From a virus, in the IMG/VR virus record IMGVR_UViG_3300028423_000356, positions 32,001 to 96,000 of that record: DNA of 64,000 bases. One strand, given 5' to 3'. Below are positions 1 through 43,410 of this stretch, piece by piece; the first letter of the stretch is position 1, and each line of letters starts with the position of its first letter. The translations under genes were made by a program, and so were the position numbers. The notes under the pieces were generated by a model that was given only the letters and a program-made list of their open reading frames with translations, made no database searches and had not been told where the DNA came from.

Positions 1-522
1 GTAATAACTGATGATAATATATCTAAATTTAATATTGGTGATAGAGTTATAGATACTGAAACTAGAGTTTATGGTGAAGTAATACTTAAAAACTATGAAT
101 TGGGTCAAATAGTAATAAAAACCCAATTAGACGAAAATGGTATTCAAAAACAATTATACGGTGGTAGGAGAATATCATCAAGAGTTTTAGTTAAACAAAA
201 ACCACAAAGAGATTCTGATGGAAGTGTAAATTGGGTAGATACTGATGTATTTATATCTTATAAAAGTGATTTAGAACAATACAATGCACCTCATCATTAT
301 GAAAATAAAAATGGTGAAATATTAAATATTGAAATATTATACAATATAGAAAATAGATACTTCTATTTTAATTATGACCAAACTCAGGGTGCAGAAGTTT
401 ATGAAGTGACAAATATGGATTATTTCGTAAGTAAAAATGAAGAATTAAAAAGAATAAAAGTGATAAAAAGAGAAGTTATAGAATCTGTTGTGCAGGAATA
501 TAAAAATCTTTTACAAGGATAA
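1..522 (+). CDS. gp53: Baseplate wedge subunit gp53-like (5'-truncated; frame open from base 1)
   Basis: Frame 1 has no stop from base 1; C-terminal VTNMDYFVSKNEELKRIKVIK resembles the gp53 C-terminus; lies upstream of hub/gp5. Confidence 0.7.
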   Translation, partial: VITDDNISKFNIGDRVIDTETRVYGEVILKNYELGQIVIKTQLDENGIQKQLYGGRRISSRVLVKQKPQRDSDGSVNWVDTDVFISYKSDLEQYNAPHHYENKNGEILNIEILYNIENRYFYFNYDQTQGAEVYEVTNMDYFVSKNEELKRIKVIKREVIESVVQEYKNLLQG

Positions 523-527
523 ATTGA

Positions 528-2000
528 ATGTCTGTTAATAGTCAAATCAGTGAATACTTTATTGAAACTGCCACGTTGTATGCCGATAGGTATTTAAACA
601 ACCCATCTCTTCCATCTGAAGGGAGTTTTGAAAGAAAAAACAAAACTTTAGAATTGAAAAATTCTATTGTTGAATTCAACGTTTATGAGAACATAGAGTT
701 ACCATATTTAACAAGTAAAATGGTAGTAACTGATTTTATTAATTTTAAGGATTATTTTAAAATTAAAGGAACAGAAAAATTAAAAATAACTCTTTTTTCA
801 CCCTATGCCGCAAAAGGTTCTGAAAAAATAACTTTAGATTTTATAATAACAGGAATAGAAGGTAATGATGTAACTAATAATGTTAACACATATGTTTTTA
901 ATTTAGTTGAAGAGTATGCATACTATGCATCATTAATTAAAAAAAGTAAAACATATAAAGGTAAACCACATAAAATAATTGAAAACATTATAGAAAATGA
1001 AATTCTTGATAAAATTAAAGATGATAATAAAAAATTCACAATAGATAAATCTAAACTAAATGAAACAAAGTTGGGTGATAGTATAAAATACATATCACCA
1101 AATATAAATTTATTGGATATAATAGAAAGAATTAAAGAAAGAAGTTTGACCAATGATGGTGCACCTGTTTTTGTTAGTAAATCAATGACAGATAATAAAA
1201 TACATTTTTCTGATTTAAAAACCTTACTAGAACAAGAACCGTTAACTGGTTCAGATTCAAAAGTTGGATTTTTTTACTCACAAACATCTTCAAGTTATTT
1301 GACTAATACTGGTTCAGTTAATAAAGATGATATTAGAGTATTACACGTAAAATCTTTCACTGAAAATGATGATTTGATAAACACTTTTAAACTAGCAAAA
1401 GAAGGTGTAATTTCATCTAATACACAAATATTCGATACAACAACTGGTGGCAATTTTAAATTTAAACACAATGTTAAAAAGGATGTAAGTAATATATTAG
1501 GTAAAGATGAGTATTTGATTAACCCTCATAACATTTTTGATGACAATTTATCCATTTTTGAAAACGAAGATGAAAAAATCGATGATATACAAACAAGAAA
1601 TTTTTCATATATTGTATCAAGTAAAGCATTTGATGATGGAAATTTATCCTACTATGAAGAAAGAAATAACGAAGAAAGATATGCACTTAATACAAAAAAG
1701 CAATCTATAAAATCTTTAATGTTTAATAGTAGATATACTATTACTGTCCCAGGTGCTTTGTTTTTTTCTAAAAAGTTAAATAATTCAGTTGGTTCTTTGA
1801 TAAACTTAAAATTCTTTGACAATAAATACGATGAAAAAGATGGCAATTTGGAGAATAAAGAGAGGTCAGGAGTTTATTTGATATATCGTTTAAGACATAG
1901 TTTCACACTTGAAAATCAATATATTGTAGATTTAGATATTGTGAAATTAAATGATAATTACCCCAATCTTAATGCTTCATCTGGTGGAGGTGGTAAGTAA
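528..2000 (+). CDS. Putative baseplate hub protein (gp27-like position)
   Basis: 490 aa between gp53 and gp5; ends in SGVYLIYRLRHSF, typical of hub proteins. Confidence 0.5.
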   Translation: MSVNSQISEYFIETATLYADRYLNNPSLPSEGSFERKNKTLELKNSIVEFNVYENIELPYLTSKMVVTDFINFKDYFKIKGTEKLKITLFSPYAAKGSEKITLDFIITGIEGNDVTNNVNTYVFNLVEEYAYYASLIKKSKTYKGKPHKIIENIIENEILDKIKDDNKKFTIDKSKLNETKLGDSIKYISPNINLLDIIERIKERSLTNDGAPVFVSKSMTDNKIHFSDLKTLLEQEPLTGSDSKVGFFYSQTSSSYLTNTGSVNKDDIRVLHVKSFTENDDLINTFKLAKEGVISSNTQIFDTTTGGNFKFKHNVKKDVSNILGKDEYLINPHNIFDDNLSIFENEDEKIDDIQTRNFSYIVSSKAFDDGNLSYYEERNNEERYALNTKKQSIKSLMFNSRYTITVPGALFFSKKLNNSVGSLINLKFFDNKYDEKDGNLENKERSGVYLIYRLRHSFTLENQYIVDLDIVKLNDNYPNLNASSGGGGK

Positions 2001-3064
2001 TGAAAATATTACAATCTGAATATTATGGTGACACTACAAGATGGTTTATAGGTAAAGCAAAAACAACTACTCTTGATCCACTTGGGTTAGGTAGAATAAG
2101 GGTTCGTGTATTTGGTCTACATACCGAAAACACAAACGATATCGAAGACAAAGACTTACCTTGGGCACCCGTTGCTATGGCAACTAATATACCTAGTGGT
2201 AATGGTATATACCAAACTTTTGGTATAAATGATAATGATACGGTATTTGGAATATTTTTAGACGGAAAACATTCACAAAACCCATTGGTTTTAGGAGTTA
2301 TTCCACACGCTGGTGAGATACAAAATCAATTTACAAATGTGCCAATTGATCCTACTATACCATTCACCACAAATATCAATCCAAATGGGAATTTAAAACA
2401 AACTGAGACTATTAACAACTCCAATATTGAATTAGATAACATACCAGGTAAAATTATAGATGAAGAATTGGACATCTCTACCTTTACGGAAAATGGTGTT
2501 ATACAAGAAACAGAGCTAAGTACAGAAGATGGTGATAATTTTACAAAAATAGCATTTGATTTTTTTAATCAAGAACTATCAAATTATGGTTCTAGAAATC
2601 CTGCTGAACAAGCAGCTGGTTTAGTTGGGAATTTTATTGCTGAATCATCTATGAATCCAACAGCAAAATCACCTGCACCTGAAAACTCTCGTGGTATTGC
2701 TCAGTGGAATGCATCAGCCAATAGATTGGGAAAATTGATAGATTTTGCTTCTGTAAAGGGTGTTGATCCTTACACTTTAGATGTTCAATTACAATACACA
2801 ATGTTTGAATTAAAAAATGATGACATAGTAATCGCATCTAGAGTTGGTGTAATAACTATAGATTCTCTAATTGAGAAAGACACAGTTGAAAATGCTACTA
2901 GACATATACTTGATATATATGAAAATCCAAAGGTGGCATTGGATTACTATGCATTTAATGAAAATAGTGTTCCGAGTGATATAAGAAAAAAATATGAAGC
3001 TGAATTAGATAAAAGAATTGGGTATGCATTAGATGTTTATAATGCATTTACTAAAGGTGAATAA
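2000..3064 (+). CDS. gp5: gp5 N-terminal OB-fold fused to a phage tail lysozyme domain
   Basis: WFIG...DPLGLGRIRVRVFGLH...LPWA...VFGIFLDG..Q.PLVLG (gp5 OB fold); AAGLVGNFIAES.MNP...GIAQW (tail lysozyme-like). Confidence 0.85.
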   Translation: MKILQSEYYGDTTRWFIGKAKTTTLDPLGLGRIRVRVFGLHTENTNDIEDKDLPWAPVAMATNIPSGNGIYQTFGINDNDTVFGIFLDGKHSQNPLVLGVIPHAGEIQNQFTNVPIDPTIPFTTNINPNGNLKQTETINNSNIELDNIPGKIIDEELDISTFTENGVIQETELSTEDGDNFTKIAFDFFNQELSNYGSRNPAEQAAGLVGNFIAESSMNPTAKSPAPENSRGIAQWNASANRLGKLIDFASVKGVDPYTLDVQLQYTMFELKNDDIVIASRVGVITIDSLIEKDTVENATRHILDIYENPKVALDYYAFNENSVPSDIRKKYEAELDKRIGYALDVYNAFTKGE

Positions 3065-8580: not shown

Positions 8581-9594
8581 ATGACTACTGAAGACTATAC
8601 ATTGAAAGACACTGGAAGAAGAAACTTTACGGTATCAAATTACCATAGAGTTAAAGAAGTGTTGCCACAACACATAGTTCAAAATTATCCACTGTTAGTA
8701 GGTCTTTTAGAATCCTATTTTGAATTTGAAGACTTAGAAAAATTCACTTTTACTGATTCTGACGGAACTCACACAATACCTGCTTCACCAACAAGATTAA
8801 TTCATGAAGTTTTAAAAGTGAGAGATATCAATGAAACTGATGAAACGTTATTAAACAATATTGAAGATGAATTGCTTTTAGGAACACAGTATTTTAGAGG
8901 TTTTATAGATAAAAGAACATCTGCAAAGTTTTCCAATAATTTGTATCGTGCAAAAGGAACTTTATATTCCATACAACAATTTTTTAAAATGTTTTTCGAT
9001 GAAGTTCCTGAAGTTAGATACACAAAACAAGATGTTTTTATCGTGGGCGAATCTAAAATAGGATGGGAAAGTCAAAAGTTTTTAACTAATGATAAACTAT
9101 ATCAAACATTAGCCATATTAATAAAAACAAGTATACCTATTAATGTGTGGAATGAAGTTTACAAACTATTTGTTCACCCTGCTGGTGTATACCTTGGTGC
9201 TAGAGTTCTTATAGAAGGGGTGGGAGATTTTGACTTAAACTTTATGCCTGATTATAAAGAAGATGAACAGTTGACCTTAATGAAAAGTCAAGGTAATATT
9301 AACACAGATGCAATCCCAGATTTGACATATCTAATTAAAGATGATAACCCAGAACTTAAAGTTAGAACTACCATACCTGGTGATATCAACACACTTGGCG
9401 ATATAACACTTGACCAACTTGATAAAACTTACAACAATTTAAAAGAATTTATTCAGGCATCATCACCAACTCTTGATAATGACTTCACAGATAGTGATTT
9501 AAAAGCAATGACCTTAGACCAAGATTGGATTACCTTGGATACTATGGATGAGGTTTCTTATCCAGTATTCTATGATTCTGACGAAAATGGTTAA
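8581..9594 (+). CDS. Baseplate wedge protein (gp7-like)
   Basis: LYRAKGT.YS...FFKMFF and FVHPAG motifs; follows gp6. Confidence 0.65.
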   Translation: MTTEDYTLKDTGRRNFTVSNYHRVKEVLPQHIVQNYPLLVGLLESYFEFEDLEKFTFTDSDGTHTIPASPTRLIHEVLKVRDINETDETLLNNIEDELLLGTQYFRGFIDKRTSAKFSNNLYRAKGTLYSIQQFFKMFFDEVPEVRYTKQDVFIVGESKIGWESQKFLTNDKLYQTLAILIKTSIPINVWNEVYKLFVHPAGVYLGARVLIEGVGDFDLNFMPDYKEDEQLTLMKSQGNINTDAIPDLTYLIKDDNPELKVRTTIPGDINTLGDITLDQLDKTYNNLKEFIQASSPTLDNDFTDSDLKAMTLDQDWITLDTMDEVSYPVFYDSDENG

Positions 9595-9636: not shown

Positions 9637-10665
9637 ATGGCAAGAGAAATAATTAATATAGGACTACAACCAAATGATGGTAAAGGTGACACTCTAAGGC
9701 AACTTGGTATAAAGGTAAACAATAACTTTACTCAGTTGTTTGACGCTGTTTTTCATGATTCAGATTCAGCAGGAATGTCTGACTCTGATATTCAGTATAT
9801 TTCTAAACAGATAAATTTTGTTGGTATATCCTTTGATAATATTTTAAATTTTGAAGAAGGTAGTGAAGAAGTAACAAATACATTACCCTCCACAACAGGT
9901 GTTATATTAAACAATAATTCTGTTTCATTTATAAAAAATAAAACATTCAATAATTTGATGTTATCTGATTCAGAAAATGGTAATAAGTATATCTTAACAC
10001 CATCAATTATTGATAGTGACACTATCATAAATTTACCACCAGTATTAGATAGTGATACATTTCTTTTTGCTGAAACGTATCAAGATGTTTTTAATAAAAC
10101 TTATTATGCACCAAGAATCGCTGATTATCTTGCTGACAGTAATGGTGCACCAATAATTTCTATAAATAGAGTTCTTTCAGCAGCTAACAATGTATCAATA
10201 AGTAATGCACAAAAGGGTAACAGTCCAACAATCTCTGTTATAGGAAATCCAGATTACCAACCTTTAGATAGTGATATAGATTTAACAATAGAGACTAAAG
10301 GTTTAGGTGTGTTAAAAATAAACAATCCATTAGTTAAAGAAAATGATATTGTCGATTTTACATCTGGTGTATCATCAGATTCTGATTTATCACTTGATAA
10401 AGAAATAACACATTTCACAGGTGATAGTGATGGTCAAATTATTTTACCAACTCCAATTAAAGAAAACTTTGTGAAAAAACTTATAAATATTTCCAATAAC
10501 AATGTAGAAGTTATTCCAGAAGTATTTACGAACGGTTCTTCTATAGTAATGAAACCAAATTCTGTTGTAAAACTACACTACACTTCACTTGTTGGATGGA
10601 TGTTAGAAGAAAATATTATTTACGATTCAACAGAAACAAATGCCCTTTGGTATGTAAAACAATAA
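9637..10665 (+). CDS. Baseplate/tail-fibre connector, gp9/gp10-like N-terminus
   Basis: MAREIINIG..PNDGKGDTLR..GIKVNNNF. Confidence 0.75.
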   Translation: MAREIINIGLQPNDGKGDTLRQLGIKVNNNFTQLFDAVFHDSDSAGMSDSDIQYISKQINFVGISFDNILNFEEGSEEVTNTLPSTTGVILNNNSVSFIKNKTFNNLMLSDSENGNKYILTPSIIDSDTIINLPPVLDSDTFLFAETYQDVFNKTYYAPRIADYLADSNGAPIISINRVLSAANNVSISNAQKGNSPTISVIGNPDYQPLDSDIDLTIETKGLGVLKINNPLVKENDIVDFTSGVSSDSDLSLDKEITHFTGDSDGQIILPTPIKENFVKKLINISNNNVEVIPEVFTNGSSIVMKPNSVVKLHYTSLVGWMLEENIIYDSTETNALWYVKQ

Positions 10666-10678: not shown

Positions 10679-12094
10679 ATGGCAGCTATTATAACAGACG
10701 ATTTTAAAAAGAGAGTTTTAACTGATATTTATTCTGATTTTTTAGATTCAGAAAATAAATTCTATCTTGGTATAGGTAAACCAATAGTTTGGAACGATTC
10801 AGATATCCCTGTAACACCTCTAAACACTGAAAGAGAAATCAGAAACGCTAAATTAAACACAATATCAGTAAAGTTAATAAAAGACGCATCACGTGTAGCA
10901 AAAAGATATAATTGGTCAAGAGGCACTATATATAACACATATAATGATGATGTGAGAGAAGAAGACAATAATAACTATTATGTTATAACTGATGAAAATG
11001 AAGTTTTTGTGTGTATTGCTAATGGTAAAGATAATTTAGGTAACCCACAACCTTCAAGAATTAAACCAACATATGCAGACAGAGATACACCATTTTTATT
11101 AGAAGATGGATATATTTGGAAATTCTTATTCACAGTTGGAACACTAGAATCTTTAAAGTTTATGGGTGCAAACTATTTTCCAATTAGAGTTATTGATACA
11201 GAAACAGGAACAGACTCTGATAAATCAAGTGGATATGAATTAAAACAATATTACATACAACAAATAGCAACTCCTGGTGAGATATTAGGATATGAAGTTA
11301 TTGAAGGTGGTACAGAATACGATAATACTGTAGAACTTCAAATTGTGGGTGATGGTTTAGTAGAAGCAAAAGCAACAGCAAATGTTAACAATGGGACAAT
11401 AACTCATGTAGATGTAGCATTTGAAGATGAAAATAATGTTGATAGTGACAATTTAAACCTAGCATTTGGACAAGGTTATTCGTATGCAAGTGTTAATGTG
11501 ATACCAAATAATATTCGTTCCGAATCAGCAATTGATGCTGAAATTAGACCTATATTTGGTCCAAAAGATGGTTTGGGTGCAAATTCTTATGATGACTTAC
11601 GCTCTAATGCAATTATGTTTTACACAAATGCAGATGGTGATGTAAATGGAGATTGGATTGTTGGTAATGACTTTAGACAAGTCACACTCATGAATATTCC
11701 ATATATAAATGACCAAGAGGGTATAACATTAAAATCATTTGAAGTTGAATATGATAATGAATTTAATCCATTTACTGTGGATAATAAAATATTTTCTGAA
11801 ACTTCAGGGGCAGAAGCTTATGTTGTTAAAACAGAAGAAACCGTTGAAGAGACAACAAATAAAATAATAAATACAATATGGTATTTACAAAATGAAACTA
11901 CTGGTTTTAACAATTTCCAAGTTGAAGATGAAGTAAGTGAATTAAAAGGAACTGGTAATGGTACAATAACCAAATTAAATGATACACCAGATATTAATGT
12001 TATGGATGCTGAAGTTTTATATATAGACAATAGATACCCAGTAATGAGAACAATCAATCAAGAAGAAGATTTTAAAATAATTATAAAAATATAA
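10679..12094 (+). CDS. gp8: Baseplate wedge subunit gp8
   Basis: MAAIITD.F; RYNW..G..Y; YYVIT...VFVCI.N; DGYIWKFLF; C-terminal LYIDNR...EDFKIII. Confidence 0.88.
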   Translation: MAAIITDDFKKRVLTDIYSDFLDSENKFYLGIGKPIVWNDSDIPVTPLNTEREIRNAKLNTISVKLIKDASRVAKRYNWSRGTIYNTYNDDVREEDNNNYYVITDENEVFVCIANGKDNLGNPQPSRIKPTYADRDTPFLLEDGYIWKFLFTVGTLESLKFMGANYFPIRVIDTETGTDSDKSSGYELKQYYIQQIATPGEILGYEVIEGGTEYDNTVELQIVGDGLVEAKATANVNNGTITHVDVAFEDENNVDSDNLNLAFGQGYSYASVNVIPNNIRSESAIDAEIRPIFGPKDGLGANSYDDLRSNAIMFYTNADGDVNGDWIVGNDFRQVTLMNIPYINDQEGITLKSFEVEYDNEFNPFTVDNKIFSETSGAEAYVVKTEETVEETTNKIINTIWYLQNETTGFNNFQVEDEVSELKGTGNGTITKLNDTPDINVMDAEVLYIDNRYPVMRTINQEEDFKIIIKI

Positions 12095-24900: not shown

Positions 24901-25515
24901 ATGTCAAATATAATATTAAAAAAATCTTCAGTTACAGGTAAAATACCAGGTATTGATGATTTGAACTATGGTGAATTAGCAATAAACTATCAAGATGGTA
25001 AAATATTTTATAAAACCGCTTCAAATGAAATAAAATCTTTTTTAGATTCAGATAACATTGAACAATTAGTTAATTACGCCAATGTTAATTTTGGTATAAA
25101 TTTAGGAAGTGATTCAAATCAACCTTTAGACTACTATGATGAAAATACTTTTACACCTGAAATTGTAAATAATAGCATATCTTACAACGTCCAAAATGGT
25201 GAATACACAAGAATAGGTAATATGGTTCACGTTGATATTACAATTGATGTATCATCATTAGATAAAACTGATACTTCAACATTTAAAATTAACGCTTTAC
25301 CATTTTTACCAAAATCAGATATAAACCCTTTAATGTATACAGTGAATGCTGGTAGGAGTAATTTATTAAATGGTCCACTAGAGTTAGAATTTGAATCTGA
25401 TAATAGTAGTTATTTACTAGGAACATCACAAAGTGGGGTTTTTGTGAGTTATGATGAATCGACTTTCAATTCTTCTGGTCAAATTTTTCTATCCCTTTCA
25501 TATAGAACTTCGTGA
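24901..25515 (+). CDS. Short fibre-like protein
   Basis: IILKKSSV.GK.P...L.YGELAINY.DGK.FYK N-terminus paralogous to 23272; LDYYDE.TFTP...G.YTRIG.MV. Confidence 0.7.
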   Translation: MSNIILKKSSVTGKIPGIDDLNYGELAINYQDGKIFYKTASNEIKSFLDSDNIEQLVNYANVNFGINLGSDSNQPLDYYDENTFTPEIVNNSISYNVQNGEYTRIGNMVHVDITIDVSSLDKTDTSTFKINALPFLPKSDINPLMYTVNAGRSNLLNGPLELEFESDNSSYLLGTSQSGVFVSYDESTFNSSGQIFLSLSYRTS

Positions 25516-28144: not shown

Positions 28145-28555
28145 ATGACTAAAGATTCTGATAATACTCAAGTTACATTAATTGAAGAGGATAAAACTGC
28201 TCAAGAAGATATTGAGTTTGTTAGAAATTCATATTACAATCTCATAAACTATGGAAATGAAGCACTTGAAGAAATGATAGAAGTTGCCAAATCAACAGAA
28301 CATCCTCGTGCTTATGAAGTGTTATCAAATATGTTGAAACATGTTTCAGAACTTAATGGAAATCTACTAGATTTACATAAAAAGAAAAAAGAAATAAATA
28401 AAGAAGAACAAGAAAAAATATTAGAAAATAATAAAACAACCAATAATTTATTCGTAGGTTCAACAACCGAACTACAAAAAATGTTATCAAAGGTGAATGA
28501 TGATAACAATAATTCTCAAGAAGATATTATTGATGTAACACCAGAAGAAGATTAA
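28145..28555 (+). CDS. gp16: Terminase small subunit gp16
   Basis: EHPRAYEV; NNLFVGSTTELQKML. Confidence 0.9.
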   Translation: MTKDSDNTQVTLIEEDKTAQEDIEFVRNSYYNLINYGNEALEEMIEVAKSTEHPRAYEVLSNMLKHVSELNGNLLDLHKKKKEINKEEQEKILENNKTTNNLFVGSTTELQKMLSKVNDDNNNSQEDIIDVTPEED

Positions 28556-30277: not shown

Positions 30278-31957
30278 ATGGCTTTATTTAACCCTTCCGC
30301 TTCTCCTGCAGTTGTTGTTCGTGAAGTAGACTTAACAGGTGGTGTACCTAATGTCCAATCTTCAACAGGTGTATTCGTAGGTAACTTTAACTGGGGTCCA
30401 GTATTACAAAGAACATTAATAGGTTCTGAATCTGGTCTAGCAGAAACTTTCACAACACCAAATAAAACAAATGCAAGAGACTTTATTTCAGCTGCGAAAT
30501 TTTTGACTTATTCGCAAGCTCTATATGTAACAAGAATCATAGATGAAAATGCTTCTAATGCTTATACTGATATCAATGAACTAATTGATTCGGACAACAT
30601 TTCATCAGCATTTGATTCAGCAGATTATAAAAAAATAACAATAAGAAACGAAGAAGAATTTGAAATACTTAAAATGTCCTTAGATGTGATTTCAGCAAAT
30701 TGGATTGCTAGATTTCCGGGTGCTTTAGGTAATTCATTAAAAGTATCATACCATTCTGGTGGAACTGGATTTGAAAATTGGGAATATTCTGATTTTTTCG
30801 ATGCTGCACCAAATAATGACGAAGTTCATGTTGTGGTAGTAGATGAAAATGGTTTATTCACTGGTAGTGAAAACACAGTTCTTGAAACTTATCAATTTGT
30901 TTCAAAAGACCCAATTGCTAAAAACCCAAATGGTACTACAAATTATATTAATGATGTGATAAATAACAAATCACAATATGTGTATTTCACAGGTTCAGCA
31001 GATTCATTTTCAGGATCTGAATCAAAATCATTTGATATGGGTAACGATTCATCATCTATAGGTGTTGATGAATACCAAATAGGATTTGATTTATATAATG
31101 ATATAGAAACAGTAACTATCGATTTTTTAATTTCACCAAGTATGGTTAACAGAACTGACCATGTTACTATGGTTAATTATTTGGTAAGTATTGCAGAAGG
31201 TGAACGTAAAGATTGTGTTGTAATAACATCACCAGCAGTTTCAGATATGGATGAATTCAATCCTGACAATATAAACACTAATATTATCGAAACATCAAAG
31301 GGATACACACGTTCATCATATTTAGTTGCTGAAAACAACTTTTTAAAGGTATATGATAAATATAACGATCAATATATCGATATTCCTGCTGCTTCTTCAA
31401 CTGCTGGTATTATGGCAGCAACTGACTTAAATGCAGCACCTTGGTTTTCCCCAGCAGGAACAAGACGTGGAAACTACTTGGGTGTAACAACTCTTAAATA
31501 CAATCCAACAAAAAAACATAGAGATGAACTTTATAAAGTTGGTGTAAACCCAATTGCTAATATTCCGGGTCAAGGTATTCTTCTATATGGAGATAAAACT
31601 TTCCTCGCAAGACCTTCAGCATTTGATAGAATTAATGTTCGTCGTCTATTTTTAGTTCTTGAAAGAGCAATTTCAAGAGCAGCAAAAAATGTAATTTTTG
31701 AACTTAACGATGAGTTCACTCGTGCCGAATTTGTTAACATTGTGGAACCTGTTCTACGTGAAGTACAAGGTCGTCGTGGACTAACAGACTATAAAGTTGT
31801 TTGTGATGAAACAAATAACACTCCAGCTGTTGTAGATCGCAATGAGTTCGTAGCAAACATCTTCATCAAACCAACACGTTCAATCAACTTTGTAACACTA
31901 AACTTTGTTGCAGTTAGATCTGGTGTGTCATTTGAAGAAGTTGTTGGAACAGTATAA
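30278..31957 (+). CDS. gp18: Tail sheath protein gp18
   Basis: SPAVVVREVDLT; PWFSPAG..RG; SAFDRINVRRLF; FELNDEFTR. Confidence 0.97.
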   Translation: MALFNPSASPAVVVREVDLTGGVPNVQSSTGVFVGNFNWGPVLQRTLIGSESGLAETFTTPNKTNARDFISAAKFLTYSQALYVTRIIDENASNAYTDINELIDSDNISSAFDSADYKKITIRNEEEFEILKMSLDVISANWIARFPGALGNSLKVSYHSGGTGFENWEYSDFFDAAPNNDEVHVVVVDENGLFTGSENTVLETYQFVSKDPIAKNPNGTTNYINDVINNKSQYVYFTGSADSFSGSESKSFDMGNDSSSIGVDEYQIGFDLYNDIETVTIDFLISPSMVNRTDHVTMVNYLVSIAEGERKDCVVITSPAVSDMDEFNPDNINTNIIETSKGYTRSSYLVAENNFLKVYDKYNDQYIDIPAASSTAGIMAATDLNAAPWFSPAGTRRGNYLGVTTLKYNPTKKHRDELYKVGVNPIANIPGQGILLYGDKTFLARPSAFDRINVRRLFLVLERAISRAAKNVIFELNDEFTRAEFVNIVEPVLREVQGRRGLTDYKVVCDETNNTPAVVDRNEFVANIFIKPTRSINFVTLNFVAVRSGVSFEEVVGTV

Positions 31958-35563: not shown

Positions 35564-36856
35564 ATGTCTATATTAACAAATCCAAATAATTTAAATCAAA
35601 ATATAGAAGTTATTTTTGACACGAACAATAAAACTATAGAATTATTAATTGATGGTAATTTGACATCTGATGGTGTTGACTTCTATACTTTATATTTATT
35701 TACTGAAAGTGAATGGAATAATGACCCAAACTTATCATTATTTCAATTCCCATTTAAATTTATTGATGAACAAAAATTCGAACTAATTAATGGTTGGACT
35801 TTTATTAACTCAAATACAATAGATTTATTAAGAAATGCGGGATTCTCGATTAAAAATGGTTCTAATGTTTCATTAGAAGAATATGCTTGTATTATTACTT
35901 TTGGTGATATTAATACTGATAGTCAAATATATTATACTCAAGGTAACACACAAGATTGGACTAATTTCAATACGAACGGTCACGTGAATCAGTGTATTAA
36001 AATATATGATTTTTTAAACTCTATAAATTATAAAAATAATATTAAATTATTTGTGCGTGATTATTACAACACATACGATCAAATTGAATTATCTGATATA
36101 GGTGTTGATGAAATGACATATGACACATACAGGTTTCCTTTAAACACTGAAAATGACTTGAATGTAGTAAATGATACAGTTACAGTTGATACATATGGTG
36201 TTACTATAACATATTATGATAATGATATAATGAAAACTATAGATGATAACTCATATCCATTTAATATAGTGATTGATGGTAATGGTAGGAGAATTGGTGA
36301 AATATACCAAGCAGTGAAATCTTTATTACTAAAAGAGTATGATATAGATAATGGAACTGGGACGGTAATAGGTAAAGTTTCAGATGAATTAATATATTAT
36401 GAAGGTGAGATATTAACCACTAAACAAGGGGTTTTTATAGAAAATATTTCTAAAGTGGATATTAATTCTGTTGAGTTTTACGATTCAAATAATATTCTAA
36501 GAACCTATCTCTATGTTTCAAGTGGTAAAATTATTTTCAATGAAAATTTATATAATGATGGTAATGCAGAATATATGATGTTTTTCAAAGATACTTGGGG
36601 TGGTGATAATGCAATACCTGTAAAAAATGAAAATGGTGTGGAAATTAGAGATGTTATAAATAATAGTGAAAATGAATTTACATTTGGTTATGACACAGAT
36701 TCTGATGGTGGGTTACCATCAACTGATAAGAATGTAACTATTATTGCAATTGGTAAAAATAAAGGTGAGTTTATAAAGGTGGACGGAACCATTAGTAGAA
36801 CCAAAAACAATATTTTCAGAATTAATGCACCAAAAGAAATAAATTATAAAATTTGA
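35564..36856 (+). CDS. Hypothetical structural-island protein
   Basis: 430 aa; N-terminal NK.I...LY....W...L.NGW pattern shared with 43441. Confidence 0.6.
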   Translation: MSILTNPNNLNQNIEVIFDTNNKTIELLIDGNLTSDGVDFYTLYLFTESEWNNDPNLSLFQFPFKFIDEQKFELINGWTFINSNTIDLLRNAGFSIKNGSNVSLEEYACIITFGDINTDSQIYYTQGNTQDWTNFNTNGHVNQCIKIYDFLNSINYKNNIKLFVRDYYNTYDQIELSDIGVDEMTYDTYRFPLNTENDLNVVNDTVTVDTYGVTITYYDNDIMKTIDDNSYPFNIVIDGNGRRIGEIYQAVKSLLLKEYDIDNGTGTVIGKVSDELIYYEGEILTTKQGVFIENISKVDINSVEFYDSNNILRTYLYVSSGKIIFNENLYNDGNAEYMMFFKDTWGGDNAIPVKNENGVEIRDVINNSENEFTFGYDTDSDGGLPSTDKNVTIIAIGKNKGEFIKVDGTISRTKNNIFRINAPKEINYKI

Positions 36857-37208: not shown

Positions 37209-38834
37209 ATGGCGTATTCAATCGACGGACTATCATGTGGAGACTACGGTCAAGACCTAGTAGACGCATTTTCTTGTTTTGCACAAGAACAGGGTCTATC
37301 CACAGCGGAGTATGTTAACTCTAAAATTCAAGAGTTACTAAATGTTCACCTAACAGATGTTACTGAACTATCAAATAAAATTGCTCTAATCAATGCTGAA
37401 CTAGATTCAGATGATGTTGTTTTTAATAACATCCTAACAGAACTTGTTCGCCTAAACAACGAAATCGTTGCAAATGATGGTGACATTGCTGATCTACAAG
37501 CAAATCTAGCAGCAGCACAATCTGCTCTTCAATCTTCAATCAATACAGTTCAGTCTAACCTAACAACTGAAGTAACTCGTCTTGATGGTCGTATTGACGC
37601 AGTAGAAGCAGCACACGATTCTGATAACACAGAAGTTCGTGCTCTTATTGCTTCTAACCTAGCAGCAATTAACACAGAAGTTTCAGACCGTGAAACAGAA
37701 ATTGCTCGTATTGAGGCACTAATCGCTTCAACAGATGCAGCAAACGATTCAGACTTTAATGCATATGTAACTTCAAACGATGCGGCACTTGCAGTAGAAG
37801 TTGCAAACCGTATTGCTGGTGATTCAGACCTACAGGCACAAGTTGATTCAATCAATGTTGAATTTGCTTCATCTGTAACTGCACTAGAAAACGCAATTGC
37901 AGCAGAAGAAGCAGCACGTATTGCTGGTGATTCAGACCTTCAAGTTGCTCTACAAGCAGAAATCGACGCTACTAATGCAGACGTAACACGTATTGAAGGT
38001 GATATCCAAGATGTCATCACAGCATATGTGGCAGCAGATTCTGACCTACAAGCACAGATTACAGCAGAAGTTGCTAATCGTGTAGCAGGTGATTCAGACC
38101 TTCAAGTTGCAGTTGACGCAGTAGTTGCAGATCTTGCAGCAGAAGTTACTCGTGCAACAACAGCAGAAGGTAATCTACAAGCAGGTATTGATGCTCTTGA
38201 CGCACAGATGTCAGCAGCAGTTGCTACATTAGAAGCAAAAGATTCTGACCTTCAGGCAGAAATCGCAACTAATCTTGCAACATTCAATGCTTACGTAACT
38301 TCAAATGATGCTGCACTTGCAGCAGAAATCGCAGCAACAGATGCTGAAATAGCAGATCTACAGGCGGCAGATTCAGACTTCAACGCAGCATTCGAAGCAT
38401 ATAAAACTGCAAATGACGCACGTGTTGCGGCAGTTGAAACTGACCTAGCAGGTTACAAAACTGCAAATGATGCTCGTTCAGCAGCAATTGAATCAGACTT
38501 CTCTGCTTATGTGACATCAAATGATGCACGTTCAGCGGCAATTGAAGCAACTATTGATTCACTAAATGCTGAATTCTCATCATCAGTTGCAGCATTGGAA
38601 GCAACAGATTCTTCACTACAATCACAGATTGACGCAATCAATACTAATGTAAGTTCTTCAGTATCTACACTTGAAGCAGCAGATTCCGACCTATCTGCTC
38701 GTGTAACATCTGTAGAAGGATGTCTAGATGACTACTTCCGTAAACTTGCAACAATTGACTGTGCAACAGTGAATCAAGCATTCCAAGCAGGTCTAGCAGC
38801 ATATACACCTGACTCAGGTGATGGTGCTCTGTAA
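37209..38834 (+). CDS. Ala-rich long coiled-coil fibre protein, probably highly expressed
   Basis: RBS aggag; repeats such as EEAARIAGDSDLQ; codon usage (gca, cta, cgt, aac, ttc) resembles gp23; Cys pairs only near both termini. Confidence 0.75.
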   Translation: MAYSIDGLSCGDYGQDLVDAFSCFAQEQGLSTAEYVNSKIQELLNVHLTDVTELSNKIALINAELDSDDVVFNNILTELVRLNNEIVANDGDIADLQANLAAAQSALQSSINTVQSNLTTEVTRLDGRIDAVEAAHDSDNTEVRALIASNLAAINTEVSDRETEIARIEALIASTDAANDSDFNAYVTSNDAALAVEVANRIAGDSDLQAQVDSINVEFASSVTALENAIAAEEAARIAGDSDLQVALQAEIDATNADVTRIEGDIQDVITAYVAADSDLQAQITAEVANRVAGDSDLQVAVDAVVADLAAEVTRATTAEGNLQAGIDALDAQMSAAVATLEAKDSDLQAEIATNLATFNAYVTSNDAALAAEIAATDAEIADLQAADSDFNAAFEAYKTANDARVAAVETDLAGYKTANDARSAAIESDFSAYVTSNDARSAAIEATIDSLNAEFSSSVAALEATDSSLQSQIDAINTNVSSSVSTLEAADSDLSARVTSVEGCLDDYFRKLATIDCATVNQAFQAGLAAYTPDSGDGAL

Positions 38835-38951: not shown

Positions 38952-40565
38952 ATGGAATTAGTTCCACATACAAATAATTTAATGTATGATGTGAGTAATT
39001 TTGGTGGTGGAAGTGTTAATATAGAAATTGACAATATACAACATTACAGTAATAACACTAGAGAATGGACTTTAGGTGTAGCTTTCTATGATATAAATCA
39101 AAATCCACTTATATTTCCTCAATGGATTGCTACATCAACATCTATTATCGAAAATCCAGATGGTTTATGGGATACTATTGTAATTATTCCGAGTTTAAAA
39201 CCTTCAGATTCACTATCTAATATTTCAGTTCAAATAAATGTTCCCGAAGGTGCACAGTTTATGTCATTTTGGGCTGCAGATTTTATGTACCCAAGAAATG
39301 GTTTTTTACCAGAAATAACCATAAAAGATAAATTTATTAATAGGAAACGTGGGACATCATATTTTTATAGAACATTTAGTGTTAATACTATATATAATGA
39401 ATATGGAGATCCATATATCTATCCAGATAGAACAATGTATGGTTACGGTATTGATGATGGAAAATATATCAATCAAGCTAGAAGTAGTTTATTTGTATAC
39501 CATTCTAACACAAAACATGGTCTTAATGATATAATAAATGATTCTTCTAACCCTAATGGTGCTGTAGAATTCCCCAATCAGTTTTATATAGATGGTATTA
39601 ATGTAACCGCTCAACAATATGTTAATGAAGGACCAGTTGTTGTACCACCTAATGATGCAACAGTATCGGAAAATACTTTAGTAACATTATCTGCAGCAGA
39701 ATCTTATGATCCAGAAGGTGACGAATTAACATATAGTTGGACACAAGTTAGTGGACCAAGTGTTATTATAAATGACGCCAATACAAGTATCGCAAACTTC
39801 ACAACTCGTTCATTACATCATTCTGATCCAGAAGATGTATATGAATTTACTGTAACAGTTTCTGATGGTATAAATGAACCCGTAACATCACCAATAATTA
39901 AAGTGACTTCAACACCAAATCCAAATCAGGCACCTATGACACCAACTTTAACAACTTTATCAGTAAAAGGTGGTGAAACAATTACTATAAATGATACAAC
40001 AACATACGATCCTGATGGTGATGAATTAACTTTTACATCAACACAAATATCAGGTCCAACTGTGACAATAACAGATATGAACTCTCGTGATATTGAGGTA
40101 TCTTTCCCAACTCTACCTTATGGAACATCAGATAACGTTGCTATTATAGACACTATTGTGTCTGATGGTTTGTTATCTTCAACAAGAAGATATTCAATAG
40201 CAATATCAACAGAACCAAACACTTCACCTATCGCAAATGCTGGATTAGATAAAGTTGTAAGTTCAGGTAGTGAGGTTATTTTATCAGGAATTGGTTCATC
40301 CGATCCAGAAGGTGTTCAACTAAGTTATAATTGGATTTTAAAATCAACAACTGGACAAACAGTTACTATAGTGGATTCAAATACAGTTTCACCATCCTTT
40401 GTTGCACCAACTTTAAATCAAGGCGATTCAGATACTGTGTTAATATTCACATTAACTGTGTCAGATGGTGAATTAACCTCATCTGATGATGTGAAAGTTA
40501 CCGTAAGAACACCCTTTAATGGGGTTTATAATTATTGTCCAAGTAACTGCAACTTATTCACATAA
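38952..40565 (+). CDS. PKD/Ig-like repeat protein (three repeats) with C-terminal NYCPSNC
   Basis: SYDPEGDELTYSWTQVSG, YDPDGDELTF and ANAGLDKVV..SDPEG repeats; RBS aaggag. Confidence 0.75.
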   Translation: MELVPHTNNLMYDVSNFGGGSVNIEIDNIQHYSNNTREWTLGVAFYDINQNPLIFPQWIATSTSIIENPDGLWDTIVIIPSLKPSDSLSNISVQINVPEGAQFMSFWAADFMYPRNGFLPEITIKDKFINRKRGTSYFYRTFSVNTIYNEYGDPYIYPDRTMYGYGIDDGKYINQARSSLFVYHSNTKHGLNDIINDSSNPNGAVEFPNQFYIDGINVTAQQYVNEGPVVVPPNDATVSENTLVTLSAAESYDPEGDELTYSWTQVSGPSVIINDANTSIANFTTRSLHHSDPEDVYEFTVTVSDGINEPVTSPIIKVTSTPNPNQAPMTPTLTTLSVKGGETITINDTTTYDPDGDELTFTSTQISGPTVTITDMNSRDIEVSFPTLPYGTSDNVAIIDTIVSDGLLSSTRRYSIAISTEPNTSPIANAGLDKVVSSGSEVILSGIGSSDPEGVQLSYNWILKSTTGQTVTIVDSNTVSPSFVAPTLNQGDSDTVLIFTLTVSDGELTSSDDVKVTVRTPFNGVYNYCPSNCNLFT

Positions 40566-40585
40566 ATATCACAAAGGAAAATAAC

Positions 40586-41821
40586 ATGGATTTATTAAAC
40601 TATCAAAATACAAACGATTTAAGTTATTATGAAGGTGGTAAAATGACTATAACTATGGATAGTATTTTACTAAAACCGTATTATCAAGAATATGTTGATG
40701 AAAGTGATGGAACAAGAACTTATAGTAACCCCAAAGGTAATTACCCAGTAACAACAGCTGTTGTTTTTATCGATTCGGATGGAGAAGTTATGAAAGATGT
40801 GTTAGTTGATCCTTCCAACACATCTCCATCAACTTCACCGAATGAAGGTAACTGGACTTCAGGTGAATACTATAACGGTATTATACTTGAACCATTTCTA
40901 TCAGTACCAGAATCTATAAATCTTTCTGTTTTTGACGGTAAAGTAGAAGTTAATTCTAGTCTTACTTATGAAATAGATGTTCCATTAGGTGCAAAAGGTT
41001 ACCATTGGGTTATTATAGAAAATATGGGTTCAGCAATTGACATTGACCCTTCACCCAATCCTAATGGTATACTTGGTTCCATTTTATTACAGAATGATTA
41101 TTCAAATTCAGAAGATTTGGGATTACAACAATATGATAAATTATTATTTAGACAAAACTTAGTTGAAAATTTGAATTCTAATACTTTAAACATAACTAAG
41201 ATATATTCTACGAAGACTTACACAGGTAGTTCGGTGGCAGTTGTACCAGGAGAAGAATTTTACTATTATGATTACCAAGGTAATTATAATCGTGGATACG
41301 TTGATTCAACTGGAGGTACCCCATACGGAAATGTTTTAGGTATAAGTTCATCAACTTCTTTCACAGAAACTTCACCTAAAGATTACACATCAACATACAA
41401 TGCTGAATATGGTATGGTTGTTGAATATATAGATACTTTAGTATATGTTACTCAATCAACAAATGATAACATACCGATTGCTGTTGTTGTTTCAGATACT
41501 CTTTCTGGGTATACAAGAGGTGGTTATAAAGTAACATTAAACGCAGGATTTTCAAGTGATGCTGATGGTGATTCACTATCATATTCTTGGGAAGTTGTTT
41601 CAACAAGCGGACCATCTGTTACACTAAGTAACTCAACAGAATCTACAACATCATTCGTTGCACCAGAATTACAAGGTGGTGATACAAATAACGAAATGGT
41701 ATTCAGAGTAACTGTAAATGATGGTAAATATACTGATAGTGCTGAAATAACAATAATTACTATGGCACCATTTGACCCAAATAAAAATTATTGTCCAAGT
41801 AATTGCACATTTTTTCAATAA
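40586..41821 (+). CDS. PKD/Ig-like domain protein with C-terminal NYCPSNC
   Basis: SSDADGDSLSYSWEVV..GPSVTL...SFVAP; tail paralogous to 38952. Confidence 0.72.
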   Translation: MDLLNYQNTNDLSYYEGGKMTITMDSILLKPYYQEYVDESDGTRTYSNPKGNYPVTTAVVFIDSDGEVMKDVLVDPSNTSPSTSPNEGNWTSGEYYNGIILEPFLSVPESINLSVFDGKVEVNSSLTYEIDVPLGAKGYHWVIIENMGSAIDIDPSPNPNGILGSILLQNDYSNSEDLGLQQYDKLLFRQNLVENLNSNTLNITKIYSTKTYTGSSVAVVPGEEFYYYDYQGNYNRGYVDSTGGTPYGNVLGISSSTSFTETSPKDYTSTYNAEYGMVVEYIDTLVYVTQSTNDNIPIAVVVSDTLSGYTRGGYKVTLNAGFSSDADGDSLSYSWEVVSTSGPSVTLSNSTESTTSFVAPELQGGDTNNEMVFRVTVNDGKYTDSAEITIITMAPFDPNKNYCPSNCTFFQ

Positions 41822-41847
41822 TCAATAATAATATATATTAAAACTTC

Positions 41848-41874: not shown

Positions 41875-41876
41875 AT

Positions 41877-41884
41877 TATAAATA
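41877..41884 (+). promoter_or_regulatory. T4-type late promoter TATAAATA
   Basis: Exact consensus right after the terminator. Confidence 0.8.
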
Positions 41885-41910
41885 TATAAAAACACTGAAT
41901 TAGGTTTAAA

Positions 41911-43410
41911 ATGATATATTACGATTCTATAAATGATGAAATAGTTATTGATAACGAACAAAGAGAGATAAATTTTTCAGATATAAGAACGTCTGTATTA
42001 TCTCAAGGATATGGTATACATATAATCAATATTGGTAATATGTATTACATCGATTGTGATGTTAGAATAAAAAATAATTCTATAGTTAAAGACAGTAATA
42101 TATCAGTTACTGTTTTAGGTAAATATTTTCAGGTTGAAAAGGGTTCAAGTTTTCAATTAGGCGATTTGGGAGATAACGATACAACTTCTGGTGGTTGTTA
42201 TTTTTCAATGCCTAACGTGGAAGTTGCTTATGGATTTGGTGAAAACACCATTATAAATGAATCAACTAATTCGGGTAATTTATATCTTTATAATTCTCGC
42301 ATAGACGTATACGGATTTTGGGGATTTTTTAGTGGTCCAAATCAAGAAGTTCATATTATTGATTGTGTTGTTAACGGATTTGGACGTGTTGAAGGTGAAA
42401 CATCAAGAGTTGAAAATGTAATTTTTGAAAAATCTCATCCTAGATATGGTATAATTGGACCTAAAGGAGAATTACTACAATATGAAAATTTGGTATCAAA
42501 TAAAGGTGAAGATTGTAGTTTTTATTTTAATCCCGATTTGATTGGTGACACGTTAATTGTTAAAAATGCTGAATTGAATAACTATAATAGGTTGGTTTAT
42601 TGTGAACCATCTGACACAGAAAAAGTTTGTAGATTTGTTGACGCTAAATTATCTGGAAACACACAAATAAGAAAAGATATAAACACAGTAATAGAAATTG
42701 CATATACCTTTAATCCAATTTTTATTGATAATGATAATATTCCATTTTCAAATTCTTTAATTGAAATATATGATGAATATAATGAAATGGTTTTTAGTGG
42801 TTTAACAGATACTAATGGTAAAATAAATACACAATTAGTATTAAGAAGAATATATTGGGATACAAATGAAGATTATACCTCAACTCTTTTTAATGTGAGG
42901 ATAATAAAAGAAAATGAATATGTTGATTATCTTTATGAACACGATAGTCAACCTTGGTATAATAAACCATTCTTCATAAGAGATCCTTTAAAAGATATTG
43001 GGTTGATTGATAGTTCTAATGATAATATTATTGACAGTGATTTAACCGTTATTCCAGATAGTGATAATACGGGTAATATAATAGATTATGATATATCTGA
43101 TAGTGCAAACATTGCAATATATATTTGTGAACATTTTGAAGAAGATATGATAAAACAAAAAGAATATGTGATTAGTAAGATATCAGAAACTGATTTATTA
43201 GAAAATATTAACATATACACAGATAGAGCAAGACATGCATATGATTTAAGACCATCATACGAATCTTTAATAATGAATGTGTTAAATGGTAATATAAAAA
43301 GAATATATACATATAACCCAGAAACTTTTGGACCAACAAGAAAGAATCTTACAAATAAAATATTCAATTTGGTTGGAACTGAAGTAATTTACACAGCACC
43401 CACTTTGTAA
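41911..43410 (+). CDS. Hypothetical protein, possible beta-helix plus Ig-like domain
   Basis: 499 aa; beta-rich pattern; VFSGLTDTNGKI segment. Confidence 0.55.
   Translation: MIYYDSINDEIVIDNEQREINFSDIRTSVLSQGYGIHIINIGNMYYIDCDVRIKNNSIVKDSNISVTVLGKYFQVEKGSSFQLGDLGDNDTTSGGCYFSMPNVEVAYGFGENTIINESTNSGNLYLYNSRIDVYGFWGFFSGPNQEVHIIDCVVNGFGRVEGETSRVENVIFEKSHPRYGIIGPKGELLQYENLVSNKGEDCSFYFNPDLIGDTLIVKNAELNNYNRLVYCEPSDTEKVCRFVDAKLSGNTQIRKDINTVIEIAYTFNPIFIDNDNIPFSNSLIEIYDEYNEMVFSGLTDTNGKINTQLVLRRIYWDTNEDYTSTLFNVRIIKENEYVDYLYEHDSQPWYNKPFFIRDPLKDIGLIDSSNDNIIDSDLTVIPDSDNTGNIIDYDISDSANIAIYICEHFEEDMIKQKEYVISKISETDLLENINIYTDRARHAYDLRPSYESLIMNVLNGNIKRIYTYNPETFGPTRKNLTNKIFNLVGTEVIYTAPTL

Follow-up and report, generated by a model that had tools for sequence, protein, structure and literature searches.

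Asp-Ser-Asp in the outer virion proteins of a T4-like phage: a candidate serine-modification sequon

The stretch of DNA considered here (64,000 nucleotides, positions 32,001 to 96,000 of IMG/VR virus record IMGVR_UViG_3300028423_000356; hereafter the window) encodes virion proteins in which one tripeptide, Asp-Ser-Asp (DSD), recurs about eight times as often as their composition predicts. Sixty-three copies are spread over 19 proteins, nearly all of them parts of the baseplate, fibres, neck and sheath or orphans encoded among these. Related phages share the excess, and D-S-D would be the local form of a clade-wide D-S-[D/A], sometimes with S or N in third place. The best-supported single reading is that D-S-[D/A] is a sequon for modification of its serine, most plausibly by O-glycosylation; it is tentative, and we put its probability at roughly 0.4. 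An initial annotation of the window had already proposed DSD as a modification or ligand sequon: the part of that claim concerning selection on the exact tripeptide in outer virion proteins stands, while the function is still put forward conditionally.

One tripeptide in excess

Expected counts were computed from the amino acid composition of each protein separately (figures of the form a/b below are observed/expected). Translation of the 64 plus-strand open reading frames (ORFs) of the window yields 34 that start before position 43420 (14,072 amino acids). In these ORFs of positions 1-43410 DSD stands at 63/7.81 (z 19.7) and 19 of the 34 carry it. It is the most over-represented of all tripeptides, the second-ranked reaching z 9.3 on 5 occurrences, and in 2000 per-protein shuffles (mean 7.6 DSD, maximum 19) the count of 63 was never reached. 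Near relatives of the motif are flat or low: DTD 3/7.7, DSE 3/5.9, ESD 3/5.9, DDS 3/7.8, SDD 8/7.8, SDS 13/8.3 and DSA 5/4.35; so are the forms with an aliphatic residue or Thr in third place (DSL 6/6.9, DSI 6/7.5, DSV 3/6.6, DST 4/7.9). The per-protein counts of the initial annotation were all reproduced on recounting over the translated ORFs (63 copies, 19 proteins); its estimate of fewer than about 10 expected copies agrees with both composition and shuffles; and the shuffling test that it had suggested, with DTD, DSE, ESD and SDD as controls, leaves DSD alone in excess.

The proteins concerned are identified in large part through Phage C48C1 (GenBank OQ984149, Kyanoviridae), to whose large terminase subunit (TerL) that of the window is 68.6% identical (46-47% for Synechococcus phages). 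Gene-by-gene BLAST shows the C48C1 gene order preserved in the window, giving the T4-like marine (cyano/pelagimyophage) order of core structural and replication genes, and Pfam and PHROG scans of the window ORFs agree with the BLAST assignments wherever a family is found. The DSD-carrying proteins are the following (window coordinates; strand; identity; number of DSD, with the expectation where given).

1..522, +, gp53-like baseplate wedge subunit, 5' end outside the window (phrog_232; BLAST to the C48C1 baseplate wedge subunit); 1 DSD
8581..9594, +, gp7-like baseplate wedge piece (PF23786, Baseplate_wedge); 3/0.16
9637..10665, +, gp9/gp10-like baseplate to tail-fibre connector (phrog_677; T4_gp9_10_N at 23.4 bits, cut-off 25); 7/0.23
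10679..12094, +, gp8-like baseplate wedge subunit (BLAST to the C48C1 wedge subunit; Phage-Gp8 at a sub-cut-off 18 bits); 3/0.17
12107..17515, +, VrlC-like structural protein of 1802 amino acids (DUF4815, PF16075, E 5e-48); 7/0.83
17750..19693, +, tail-collar fibre protein (phrog_8469, phrog_1800 at residues 528-647 only); 10/0.68
19729..22638, +, fibre protein with tail-collar and PKD domains (K319L-like_PKD, E 8e-57); 4/0.59
22659..23012, +, 117-residue protein of an 'L-shaped tail fibre protein assembly' family (phrog_1084, phrog_3304); 2/0.06
23272..24819, +, fibre-like structural protein of a family with more than 2000 members (AlphaFold model); 6/0.62
24901..25515, +, 204-residue fibre-related protein (N-terminal matches to tail-fibre PHROGs); 1 DSD
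25564..26322, +, gp13-like neck protein, head-tail adaptor (BLAST to C48C1 'head-tail adaptor Ad2'); 1 DSD
27194..27949, +, gp15-like tail sheath stabiliser (BLAST to C48C1 'tail sheath stabilizer'); 1 DSD
28145..28555, +, small terminase subunit; 1 DSD, at residues 4-6, in an aligned column that is a gap in 57/62 sequences
30278..31957, +, gp18-like tail sheath; 1 DSD and 1 DSA, both in the variable N-terminal two thirds
35564..36856, +, 430-residue orphan between portal and prohead protease (no PHROG family); 1 DSD
37209..38834, +, 541-residue Ala-rich, coiled-coil-like fibre protein (coiled-coil-type Pfam matches, sub-threshold); 10/0.57
38952..40565, +, 537-residue orphan protein; 1 DSD
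40586..41821, +, 411-residue orphan protein; 1 DSD
41911..43410, +, 499-residue orphan protein; 2/0.24

The small terminase subunit is not an outer virion protein, and its DSD is probably a chance copy. The motif does not occur in the window's hub, gp5 pieces, gp25, gp6, large terminase, tube, portal, protease, scaffold or head protein, for which, with the protease, scaffold and head-protein ORFs left out of the sum, only about 2 copies are expected; the initial annotation's own roll of DSD-free proteins (hub, gp5 pieces, gp25, gp6, gp17, gp19-gp23) likewise came out at 0 copies. The rest of the window holds 4/2.4 DSD: the low count that had been reported for the replication genes is right, the number (3) is not, one further copy lying in ORF 50087-50545. 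The whole record from which the window is taken (135.5 kb, estimated to be 79% complete; G000 below) has 75/16.4.

(A side note on G000: the only DSD cluster outside the structural block is found 18.2-18.6 kb upstream of the window in a glutaredoxin gene [PF00462, G000 13386-13787], whose product ends in a 50-residue acidic tail with 4 DSD, including the only DSDSD of the genome. In five other genomes the best matches to this protein cover 52-56% of it, three of these matches being much longer proteins, so that G000 may be alone in having the tail. The gene sits two small ORFs upstream of a block of transferase genes to be described below.)

Could so many copies be a functionless artefact, whether of internal repeats, biased composition, a DNA word (a methylation or binding site) or a few ancestral copies? 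Something can be said for each. Seven of the ten copies in ORF 37209, the sole real repeat family, have related flanks of the A-G-DSD-L-Q type, as do one pair of DSD in ORF 19729 and one in ORF 23272; the genome has a G+C content of 30% and favours codons such as GAT, TCA and AGT; and it encodes several DNA methylases. Nevertheless, when sites sharing at least 7 of 20 flank residues are collapsed, only 8 of the 63 copies merge and 55 groups remain, against 7.8 expected copies, so that internal repeats are ruled out as the cause. Shuffled proteins of identical composition never reach even a third of the count, and a phage of similar A+T content, HTVC008M, has no excess (counts below): these two results dispose of composition or A+T bias, and the other outgroups, which also show no excess, likewise indicate that A+T richness is not the cause. 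A DNA-level word is ruled out as well. At the DNA level the 63 copies come as 13 nine-base words, among which serine is written with TCN as well as AGY codons; the corresponding degenerate DNA pattern occurs 63 times in frame, 0 times in frames +1 and +2 of the same ORFs and 3 times on the reverse strand; and the serine codons of the 75 genome-wide copies (AGT 24, TCA 24, TCT 22) are close to general usage. The varied codons had been read in the initial annotation, correctly, as the mark of something other than a DNA repeat. Finally, most sites are not common to relatives. The artefact explanation, largely refuted, is very improbable, and these statistics support the view that selection acts on protein, on the exact tripeptide, and on outward-facing parts of the virion only.

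A clade-wide motif with mobile sites

Eighty related loci in IMG/VR, found through their terminase (66-73% identity) and taken with up to 10 kb of flank on each side, provide 857 ORFs. They contain DSD at 494/123.5 and DSA at 390/121.4, and the near-misses are once more unremarkable or scarce: DTD 109/118.6, DTA 56/120.5, DSE 31/90.9, ESD 45/90.9, NSD 31/96.1. The preferred third residue varies from genome to genome, like a dialect. G000 (DSD 75/16.4, DSA 9/8.6) and the complete genome of C48C1 (DSD 38/18.8, DSA 13/18.5) favour DSD only; in G003 (DSD 47/17.6, DSA 53/16.6) and G004 (DSD 35/15.9, DSA 55/16.0) DSA equals or exceeds DSD; G002 combines DSD (22/11.0) with DSS (26/11.1). G005 has no excess, but its contig is without baseplate genes. 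The initial annotation had suggested looking for a different tripeptide at homologous sites of relatives; what is found is DSA and DSS enriched beside DSD, with D, A, S and N replacing one another within columns. The choice of dialect, noted in locus L075 (762-7199) and in other relatives, does not simply track G+C content. In the fibre repeats of some relatives each repeat carries the motif (L052, 17067-20225, and L018, 1-2124: G-T-I-DSA-R-I-P and L-I/V-DSA-Y-V-Q-A-R-Q), and one 1052-residue fibre protein of this group contains 22 DSA and 3 DSD.

Outside the clade the excess is absent: from the first 100 kb of Pelagibacter phage HTVC008M (DSD 6/10.9, DSA 12/10.1; 3/5.2 in its 21 outer structural ORFs), from a 50-kb structural region of Synechococcus phage S-RIM2 (DSD 3/5.9), from the distant 191-kb contig G001 (DSD 6/11.9) and from eight distant baseplate loci, L004-L011 (2 DSD, about 7.6 expected). 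A general trait of T4-like baseplates is ruled out by the last three of these. Conversely, no clade member was seen to have lost the motif globally: L068 and L073, which are without the conserved neck and sheath sites, are DSD-rich elsewhere. In a search of the open-access literature no description of the motif was found, which is not proof of its being unpublished.

The distribution over protein families, as counted for DS[DA] in the 80 relatives (homologous sequences, so that the counts are not independent), repeats the pattern of the window. At the low end stand TerL (0/21.2), tube (0/4.9), protease (0/1.3), scaffold (1/8.0), portal (7/10.8) and gp13 (5/7.4); at the high end stand gp14 (87/14.8), gp15 (148/12.2), the sheath (153/39.6) and unassigned proteins of at least 300 residues, mostly fibres (337/76.8). 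In the sheath alignment all 34 motif columns fall within columns 65-506 of 780, the variable part, and many are in lineage-specific insertions.

Individual sites turn over. Thirty-three of the window's DSD, in 11 proteins, can be compared with a homologue of at least 40% coverage in G002, G003, G004 or C48C1 (the other 30 are in proteins without one): at 7 of them at least one relative has DS followed by a small residue in the very same column, at 15 there is such a motif no more than 6 columns off, and at 18 there is none. Looked at from the other side, 16 of the 62 DS[DA] in the relatives' homologues have a counterpart in the window. The window occupies only 2 of the 12 commonly used neck and sheath columns, yet its genome is the most DSD-rich overall, and 9 of the 10 copies in ORF 17750, which has no homologue in six compared genomes, lie in its orphan N-terminal segment of 230 residues.

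The same behaviour can be followed within one family. Among 120 metagenomic homologues of ORF 23272, DSD stands at 340/60.2 and DSA at 296/71.5, and 111 of the 120 carry at least three copies; DTD (11/82.4), DTA (20/97.3), NSD (16/48.1), ESD (5/16.6), DGD (20/70.0) and DSL (12/49.7) are all depleted. In a single column the third position is exchanged freely (DSD 21, DSA 15, DSS 10, DSN 6), and elsewhere the motif alternates with unrelated tripeptides. A core of two fixed residues followed by a small one, the scarcity of near-misses, and sites that turn over and are gained repeatedly in non-homologous proteins together resemble a tag selected for its presence more than an inherited structural residue.

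What the motif may do

The mechanism that we favour can be put as follows. Selection would maintain the motif where turns, loops and the beginnings of helices are exposed on the baseplate periphery, the fibres, the neck and the outer sheath domains ('exposed' being judged from the boundaries of secondary-structure elements in the ORF 23272 model and from sheath-domain variability); its serine would receive a covalent modification inside the infected cell, no later than the assembly of the tail. The chemistry would be O-glycosylation by enzymes of the phage's own. That the serine is modified at all, that the modifier is a sugar, and that virion proteins, not the lipo-oligosaccharide of the host, are the target of the enzymes is what we infer from the following.

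The initial annotation had noted that no glycosyltransferase or kinase is visible in the window, which is so, and had proposed a search of the rest of the genome. For kinases that search came back empty (no match to PF00069 in G000); for glycosyltransferases it did not. Upstream of the window, five tightly packed ORFs constitute a transferase block:

G000 14257-17557 (within), three GT25-like ORFs (GT25 at 67 bits and 59 bits; the third at 21.7 bits, under the cut-off of 24)
G000 14257-17557 (within), a 232-residue glycosyltransferase ORF (phrog_1962, E 1e-23)
G000 16952-17557, a 201-residue ORF with a Maf/sialyltransferase fold (fold search only)

The nearest solved relative of two of the GT25 ORFs is 8xc8, a 'glycosyltransferase family 25 protein' (E 2e-6). 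The 232-residue ORF is named by PHROGs alone: it has no Pfam or NCBIfam match and no related enzyme in the PDB (by phmmer or by profile). The 201-residue ORF belongs to no family of Pfam, NCBIfam or PHROGs, and sequence and profile searches of the PDB give no related enzyme; its fold was reached through a model made from 41 of the at least 269 metagenomic proteins of its family (predicted local distance difference test [pLDDT] 94.5, predicted template modelling score 0.91). VIA-align, a search independent of Foldseek, places this model closest to the Maf glycosyltransferase 5mu5_A (Z 11.6, root-mean-square deviation 3.4, 164 residues aligned), followed by the sialyltransferase Cst-I (2p56_A, Z 10.1), SteA (10.0), an MptE-like kinase (9.5) and mammalian sialyltransferases (8.4, 7.7), while Foldseek ranks CstII sialyltransferases first at an E of only 1.6e-3.

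A GT25-like gene lies within 3 kb of the 201-residue gene in all 49 IMG/VR loci with full flanks (the 232-residue gene in 5 of the 49). The 201-residue family is present in all five motif-enriched genomes (G000, G002, G003, G004, C48C1) and in G005, where motif status is not assessable, and was not found in G001 or the complete genome of HTVC008M. GT25 is present in G000 and G002-G005 and was not found in G001, HTVC008M or the complete C48C1. Among phage records the 201-residue ORF matches C48C1 only, and a tblastn search of 50,697 records with a GT25-like ORF gave one weak match, in S-8S53, annotated as a 2OG-Fe(II) oxygenase. It is a possible, if doubtful, elaboration that a minimal Maf/sialyltransferase-fold enzyme and GT25 together would constitute a phage-encoded cytoplasmic serine O-glycosylation system, laying (acidic) glycans over the whole outer surface of fibres, baseplate, neck and tail, with lineages that keep re-placing the tag and tuning its third residue; no phage would before have been credited with a virion glycosylation code directed by a sequon. 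(G000 also encodes, at 97722-98399 outside the window, a Sulfotransfer_2 protein [31.2 bits; phrog_3347, 'galactose-3-O-sulfotransferase'], found in G000 only among seven genomes, which could sulfate a glycan.)

A good deal weighs against the glycosylation sequon, beginning with the enzymes. 1) Their association with the motif may reflect shared ancestry, the positives being one clade and the negatives all outgroups; and C48C1 has a twofold DSD excess yet no GT25 in its complete genome. 2) Some 14 kb separate the block from the baseplate genes downstream of it, and its neighbours are genes of early type (RNase H, glutaredoxin, methylases). Many structural genes have a TATAAATA box (T4-type late) 15-80 bases upstream; the block has none directly before it, and a late-promoter link was for this reason dropped. 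3) The 201-residue protein aligns to residues 271-507 of the 632 of 5mu5_A, that is, to a bare catalytic core, and the substrate-binding flanking domains are missing. 4) PF00534 (Glycos_transf_1), PF00535 (Glycos_transf_2), PF01501 (Glyco_transf_8), PF00069 (Pkinase), PF03102 (NeuB) and PF02348 (CTP_transf_3) have no match in G000, although in a record 79% complete this does not prove such families absent from the phage. 5) The non-structural proteins of G000, the glutaredoxin tail set aside, have about 8/8.4 DSD and are thus not depleted. 6) The case for modification is built wholly on sequence statistics. 7) A GT25 galactosyltransferase and a sialyltransferase-type enzyme are also a classic pair in building the outer cores of lipo-oligosaccharides. 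8) The published interpretation of transferase genes in pelagimyophages and cyanomyophages is, in the part of that paper available to us, modification of the host O-chain (PMC7029224), and for Maf enzymes no sequon is known, according to the portion consulted of a recent account (PMC11339370).

The sites themselves raise a further difficulty, for they suit a purely structural role, in which D-S-[D/A] would be the way favoured by the clade to start a turn, loop or helix (as an Asx/ST-turn or N-cap) or to form a low-affinity Mg/Ca site in sea water, the serine remaining bare. It would have multiplied because numerous short strands and helices make up the proteins of the fibres and the baseplate edge. 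The structure predicted by AlphaFold for ORF 23272 (from a 51-sequence alignment; mean pLDDT 70.2, with block values of 60-84 at five sites and <60 at the last) places all six DSD at element boundaries: 37-39 in a hairpin turn between strands 32-36 and 42-47; 157-159, 230-232 and 238-240 in loops or turns beside strands 150-154 and 231-235 (one of them at the entry to 231-235); 389-391 where helix 391-394 begins; and 494-496 in coil of low confidence. Such a placement is just as much to be expected of a structural motif. In ORF 17750 the DSD at residues 47, 61 and 75, spaced by 14, appear to open successive helix-like segments. In ORF 19729 two DSD replace the middle residue of what we take to be the usual D-x-D loop of PKD domains. 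The residue that follows DSD is most often L (15 of 63), N (10) or G (9), and DSD-G and DSD-L correspond to textbook turn and helix N-cap patterns. Some sites are, moreover, conserved in the manner of structural residues: DSD occupies one gp15 column in 62 of 65 sequences and another in 45 of 65, and a gp14 column in 31 of 44, and one DSA column of the ORF 23272 family is filled in 62 of 64. At the first gp15 site, which is where the window's own gp15-like protein has its DSD, the clade has ADSDFGF, HTVC008M and S-RIM2 ADDDFGF; hence the flanking Asp are older and the central Ser is a novelty of the clade, and the difference may be a single inherited change.

Other properties fit a structural role poorly. 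At turns and caps N can as a rule stand in for D, and T for S; in these phages NSD, DTD, DTA, ESD and DSE are mostly at 0.13-0.5 of expectation in the relatives and the fibre family. Homologous proteins of phages living in the same sea water, including the AT-rich HTVC008M, have no excess. The free exchange of D and A in third place is odd for a metal ligand, and a DxDxDG calcium loop is found at none of the 63 sites (0 are followed by x-D-G): of the cation-binding option of the initial annotation the classical loop falls, and a low-affinity site is kept within the structural alternative. Most sites, finally, are not positionally conserved, and a clade-specific cause would still be required. 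On balance a purely structural motif is an unlikely explanation, though one to be taken seriously.

It is also conceivable that the tag is real but read by something other than a glycosyltransferase: by an unrecognised or host enzyme adding another group to serine (phosphate, acyl, phosphoglycerol or the like), by an assembly chaperone peculiar to the clade and docking on D-S-[D/A], or by a host-surface ligand in contact with the outside of the tail. The strictness, surface restriction and turnover of the motif fit such a reader as they fit glycosylation; the link to sugar transferases is one of clades only, with C48C1 managing its excess without GT25; and the preference of G002 for DSS beside DSD brings to mind the Asp-Ser-Ser repeats that are phosphorylated in dentin phosphoprotein. 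Yet besides the missing Pkinase match, no obvious kinase or acyltransferase is apparent among the 36 ORFs scanned outside the structural block (of 178 ORFs), and a chaperone would leave unexplained a motif common to sheath, neck and fibres, whose assembly pathways differ. We regard this family of explanations as quite improbable.

Should an enzyme prove to read the tag, marine phages of a large and abundant group would be coating their host-contacting machinery chemically by way of a sequence-readable three-residue code, with a bearing on host range, adsorption, resistance to marine proteases, the stickiness and decay of particles, and the reading of tail-fibre genes in metagenomes. A very short, portable serine-modification tag would then also be available, and with it a minimal transferase core of 201 residues. 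Even if the motif is structural, the fact that this clade prefers one tripeptide eight-fold, with its near-misses depleted, constitutes an unexplained rule of protein design in these tails.

As to the setting of these genes, all large ORFs of the window are on the plus strand, its G+C content is 26-34%, and its order is as follows.

1-8563, +, baseplate wedge and hub genes (BLAST to C48C1)
8581-17515, +, gp7-like, gp9/10-like and gp8-like genes and the VrlC-like giant (BLAST to C48C1)
17527-25515, +, a short fibre block (BLAST to C48C1)
25564-34290, +, neck genes, terminase, sheath, tube and portal (BLAST to C48C1)
34315-44649, +, a 10-kb block of orphan ORFs
beyond 44649, prohead protease, scaffold and major head protein, then replication genes

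The orphan block comprises eight ORFs between portal and prohead protease, seven of them without a PHROG family; in sampled relatives the portal directly adjoins the protease. With its coiled-coil-like protein of 10 DSD it looks like a second fibre or decoration module, unusually placed. The major head protein gene is broken (46809-47958): residues 1-56 of the homologue are found in ORF 46809-47009 and 128-449 in ORF 46972-47958, in different frames, and some 70 residues are without a counterpart; the gene may really be interrupted, or a frameshift or a fault in the assembly may be the cause. Outside the window G000 has no fewer than five genes of DNA-methylase type (6269-9559, 107131-108306, 131776-135067), including those for an EcoRI-like adenine methylase, two C5 cytosine methylases and an N6 methylase with a type I specificity subunit. 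Also outside it, at G000 113058-114032, is a gene for an SbmA/BacA-like transporter (PF05992, 425 bits), adjoined by ClpP and MotA/ExbB-like genes, with 70-81% identity to genes of Pelagibacteraceae, SAR116 and other marine, mainly alphaproteobacterial genomes. This one gene suggests an origin in the host and hints at the host group: the phages are an uncultured clade of marine T4-like phages (Kyanoviridae type) that probably infect a SAR11-like alphaproteobacterium.

Comparison with known systems

The preferences of type I beta-turns, Asx-turns and helix N-caps are generic and tolerate N, T, P, G and E. The modelled placement of the phage sites at turns, loops and helix starts is of this kind, and D-S-D-G and D-S-D-L resemble preferred sequences; but generic preferences would not lead one to expect one tripeptide, and in this clade only, to be eight times too frequent while its near-misses are depleted.

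The O-glycosylation sequon of Bacteroidetes, D-(S/T)-(A/I/L/V/M/T), operates in the periplasm on exported proteins. It too has three residues, Asp and then a hydroxy residue, and the DSA of the relatives fits it. DSD does not, Thr is not accepted by the phages, and neither DSL, DSI, DSV and DST nor the DT-x words are enriched; the SbmA/BacA-like gene, for its part, points to marine Alphaproteobacteria. The analogy, which had been offered in the initial annotation, is therefore given up.

Among phages the nearest precedent is that of mycobacteriophages: Freeman and co-workers, in Cell Host Microbe in 2023, are said to have found phage-encoded glycosyltransferases decorating the virion, that is, the phages' own structural proteins. 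There the targets are reportedly capsid and tail tube, with no defined three-residue sequon, and the genes lie beside the structural genes; in G000 the motif is missing from capsid interior, tube and portal, and the candidate genes lie far from the structural ones. Pelagimyophages and cyanomyophages have the same variable fibre block between VrlC and the neck, and conspicuous glycosyltransferase genes (Zaragoza-Solas et al. 2020, PMC7029224); the sections of that paper available to us mention no virion-protein motif, and cultured HTVC008M is without motif, GT25 and Maf-like genes.

Working in the cytoplasm, Maf enzymes attach nonulosonic acids, and also Neu5Ac and Kdo, by O-glycosylation to Ser/Thr exposed on the surface of flagellin, to judge from the part of the literature account consulted (PMC11339370). 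Their substrate is thus a structural protein that later forms an extracellular assembly, as the phage proteins do, and the 201-residue phage protein is predicted to have the catalytic fold of 5mu5. The differences are of size (201 residues against 632 in 5mu5_A, with a similarity undetectable by sequence) and of supply: no nonulosonate pathway is seen in G000 (NeuB, PF03102, and CTP_transf_3, PF02348, 0 matches), and a donor could be the host's.

The closest likeness of motif is provided by SdgB and SdgA, which act on the staphylococcal Ser-Asp adhesins. The phage motif differs from theirs in standing isolated (0 of the 63 copies are inside DSDSD) and scattered over 19 folded proteins, instead of in long SDSDSD arrays, and in accepting Ala in third place in the relatives; the enzyme differs too, SdgB being a GT-B (GT4) protein with a DUF1975 insert and PF00534 having 0 matches in G000. 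The systems would nonetheless have features in common. The staphylococcal enzymes are, as described in the part of the source consulted, cytoplasmic and serine-specific and modify protein on its way to a surface, and SdgB attaches O-linked N-acetylglucosamine to the serine of the free tripeptide DSD (PMC8561734): the acceptor serine lies within D-S-D, and the window has 63 such sites in 19 proteins.

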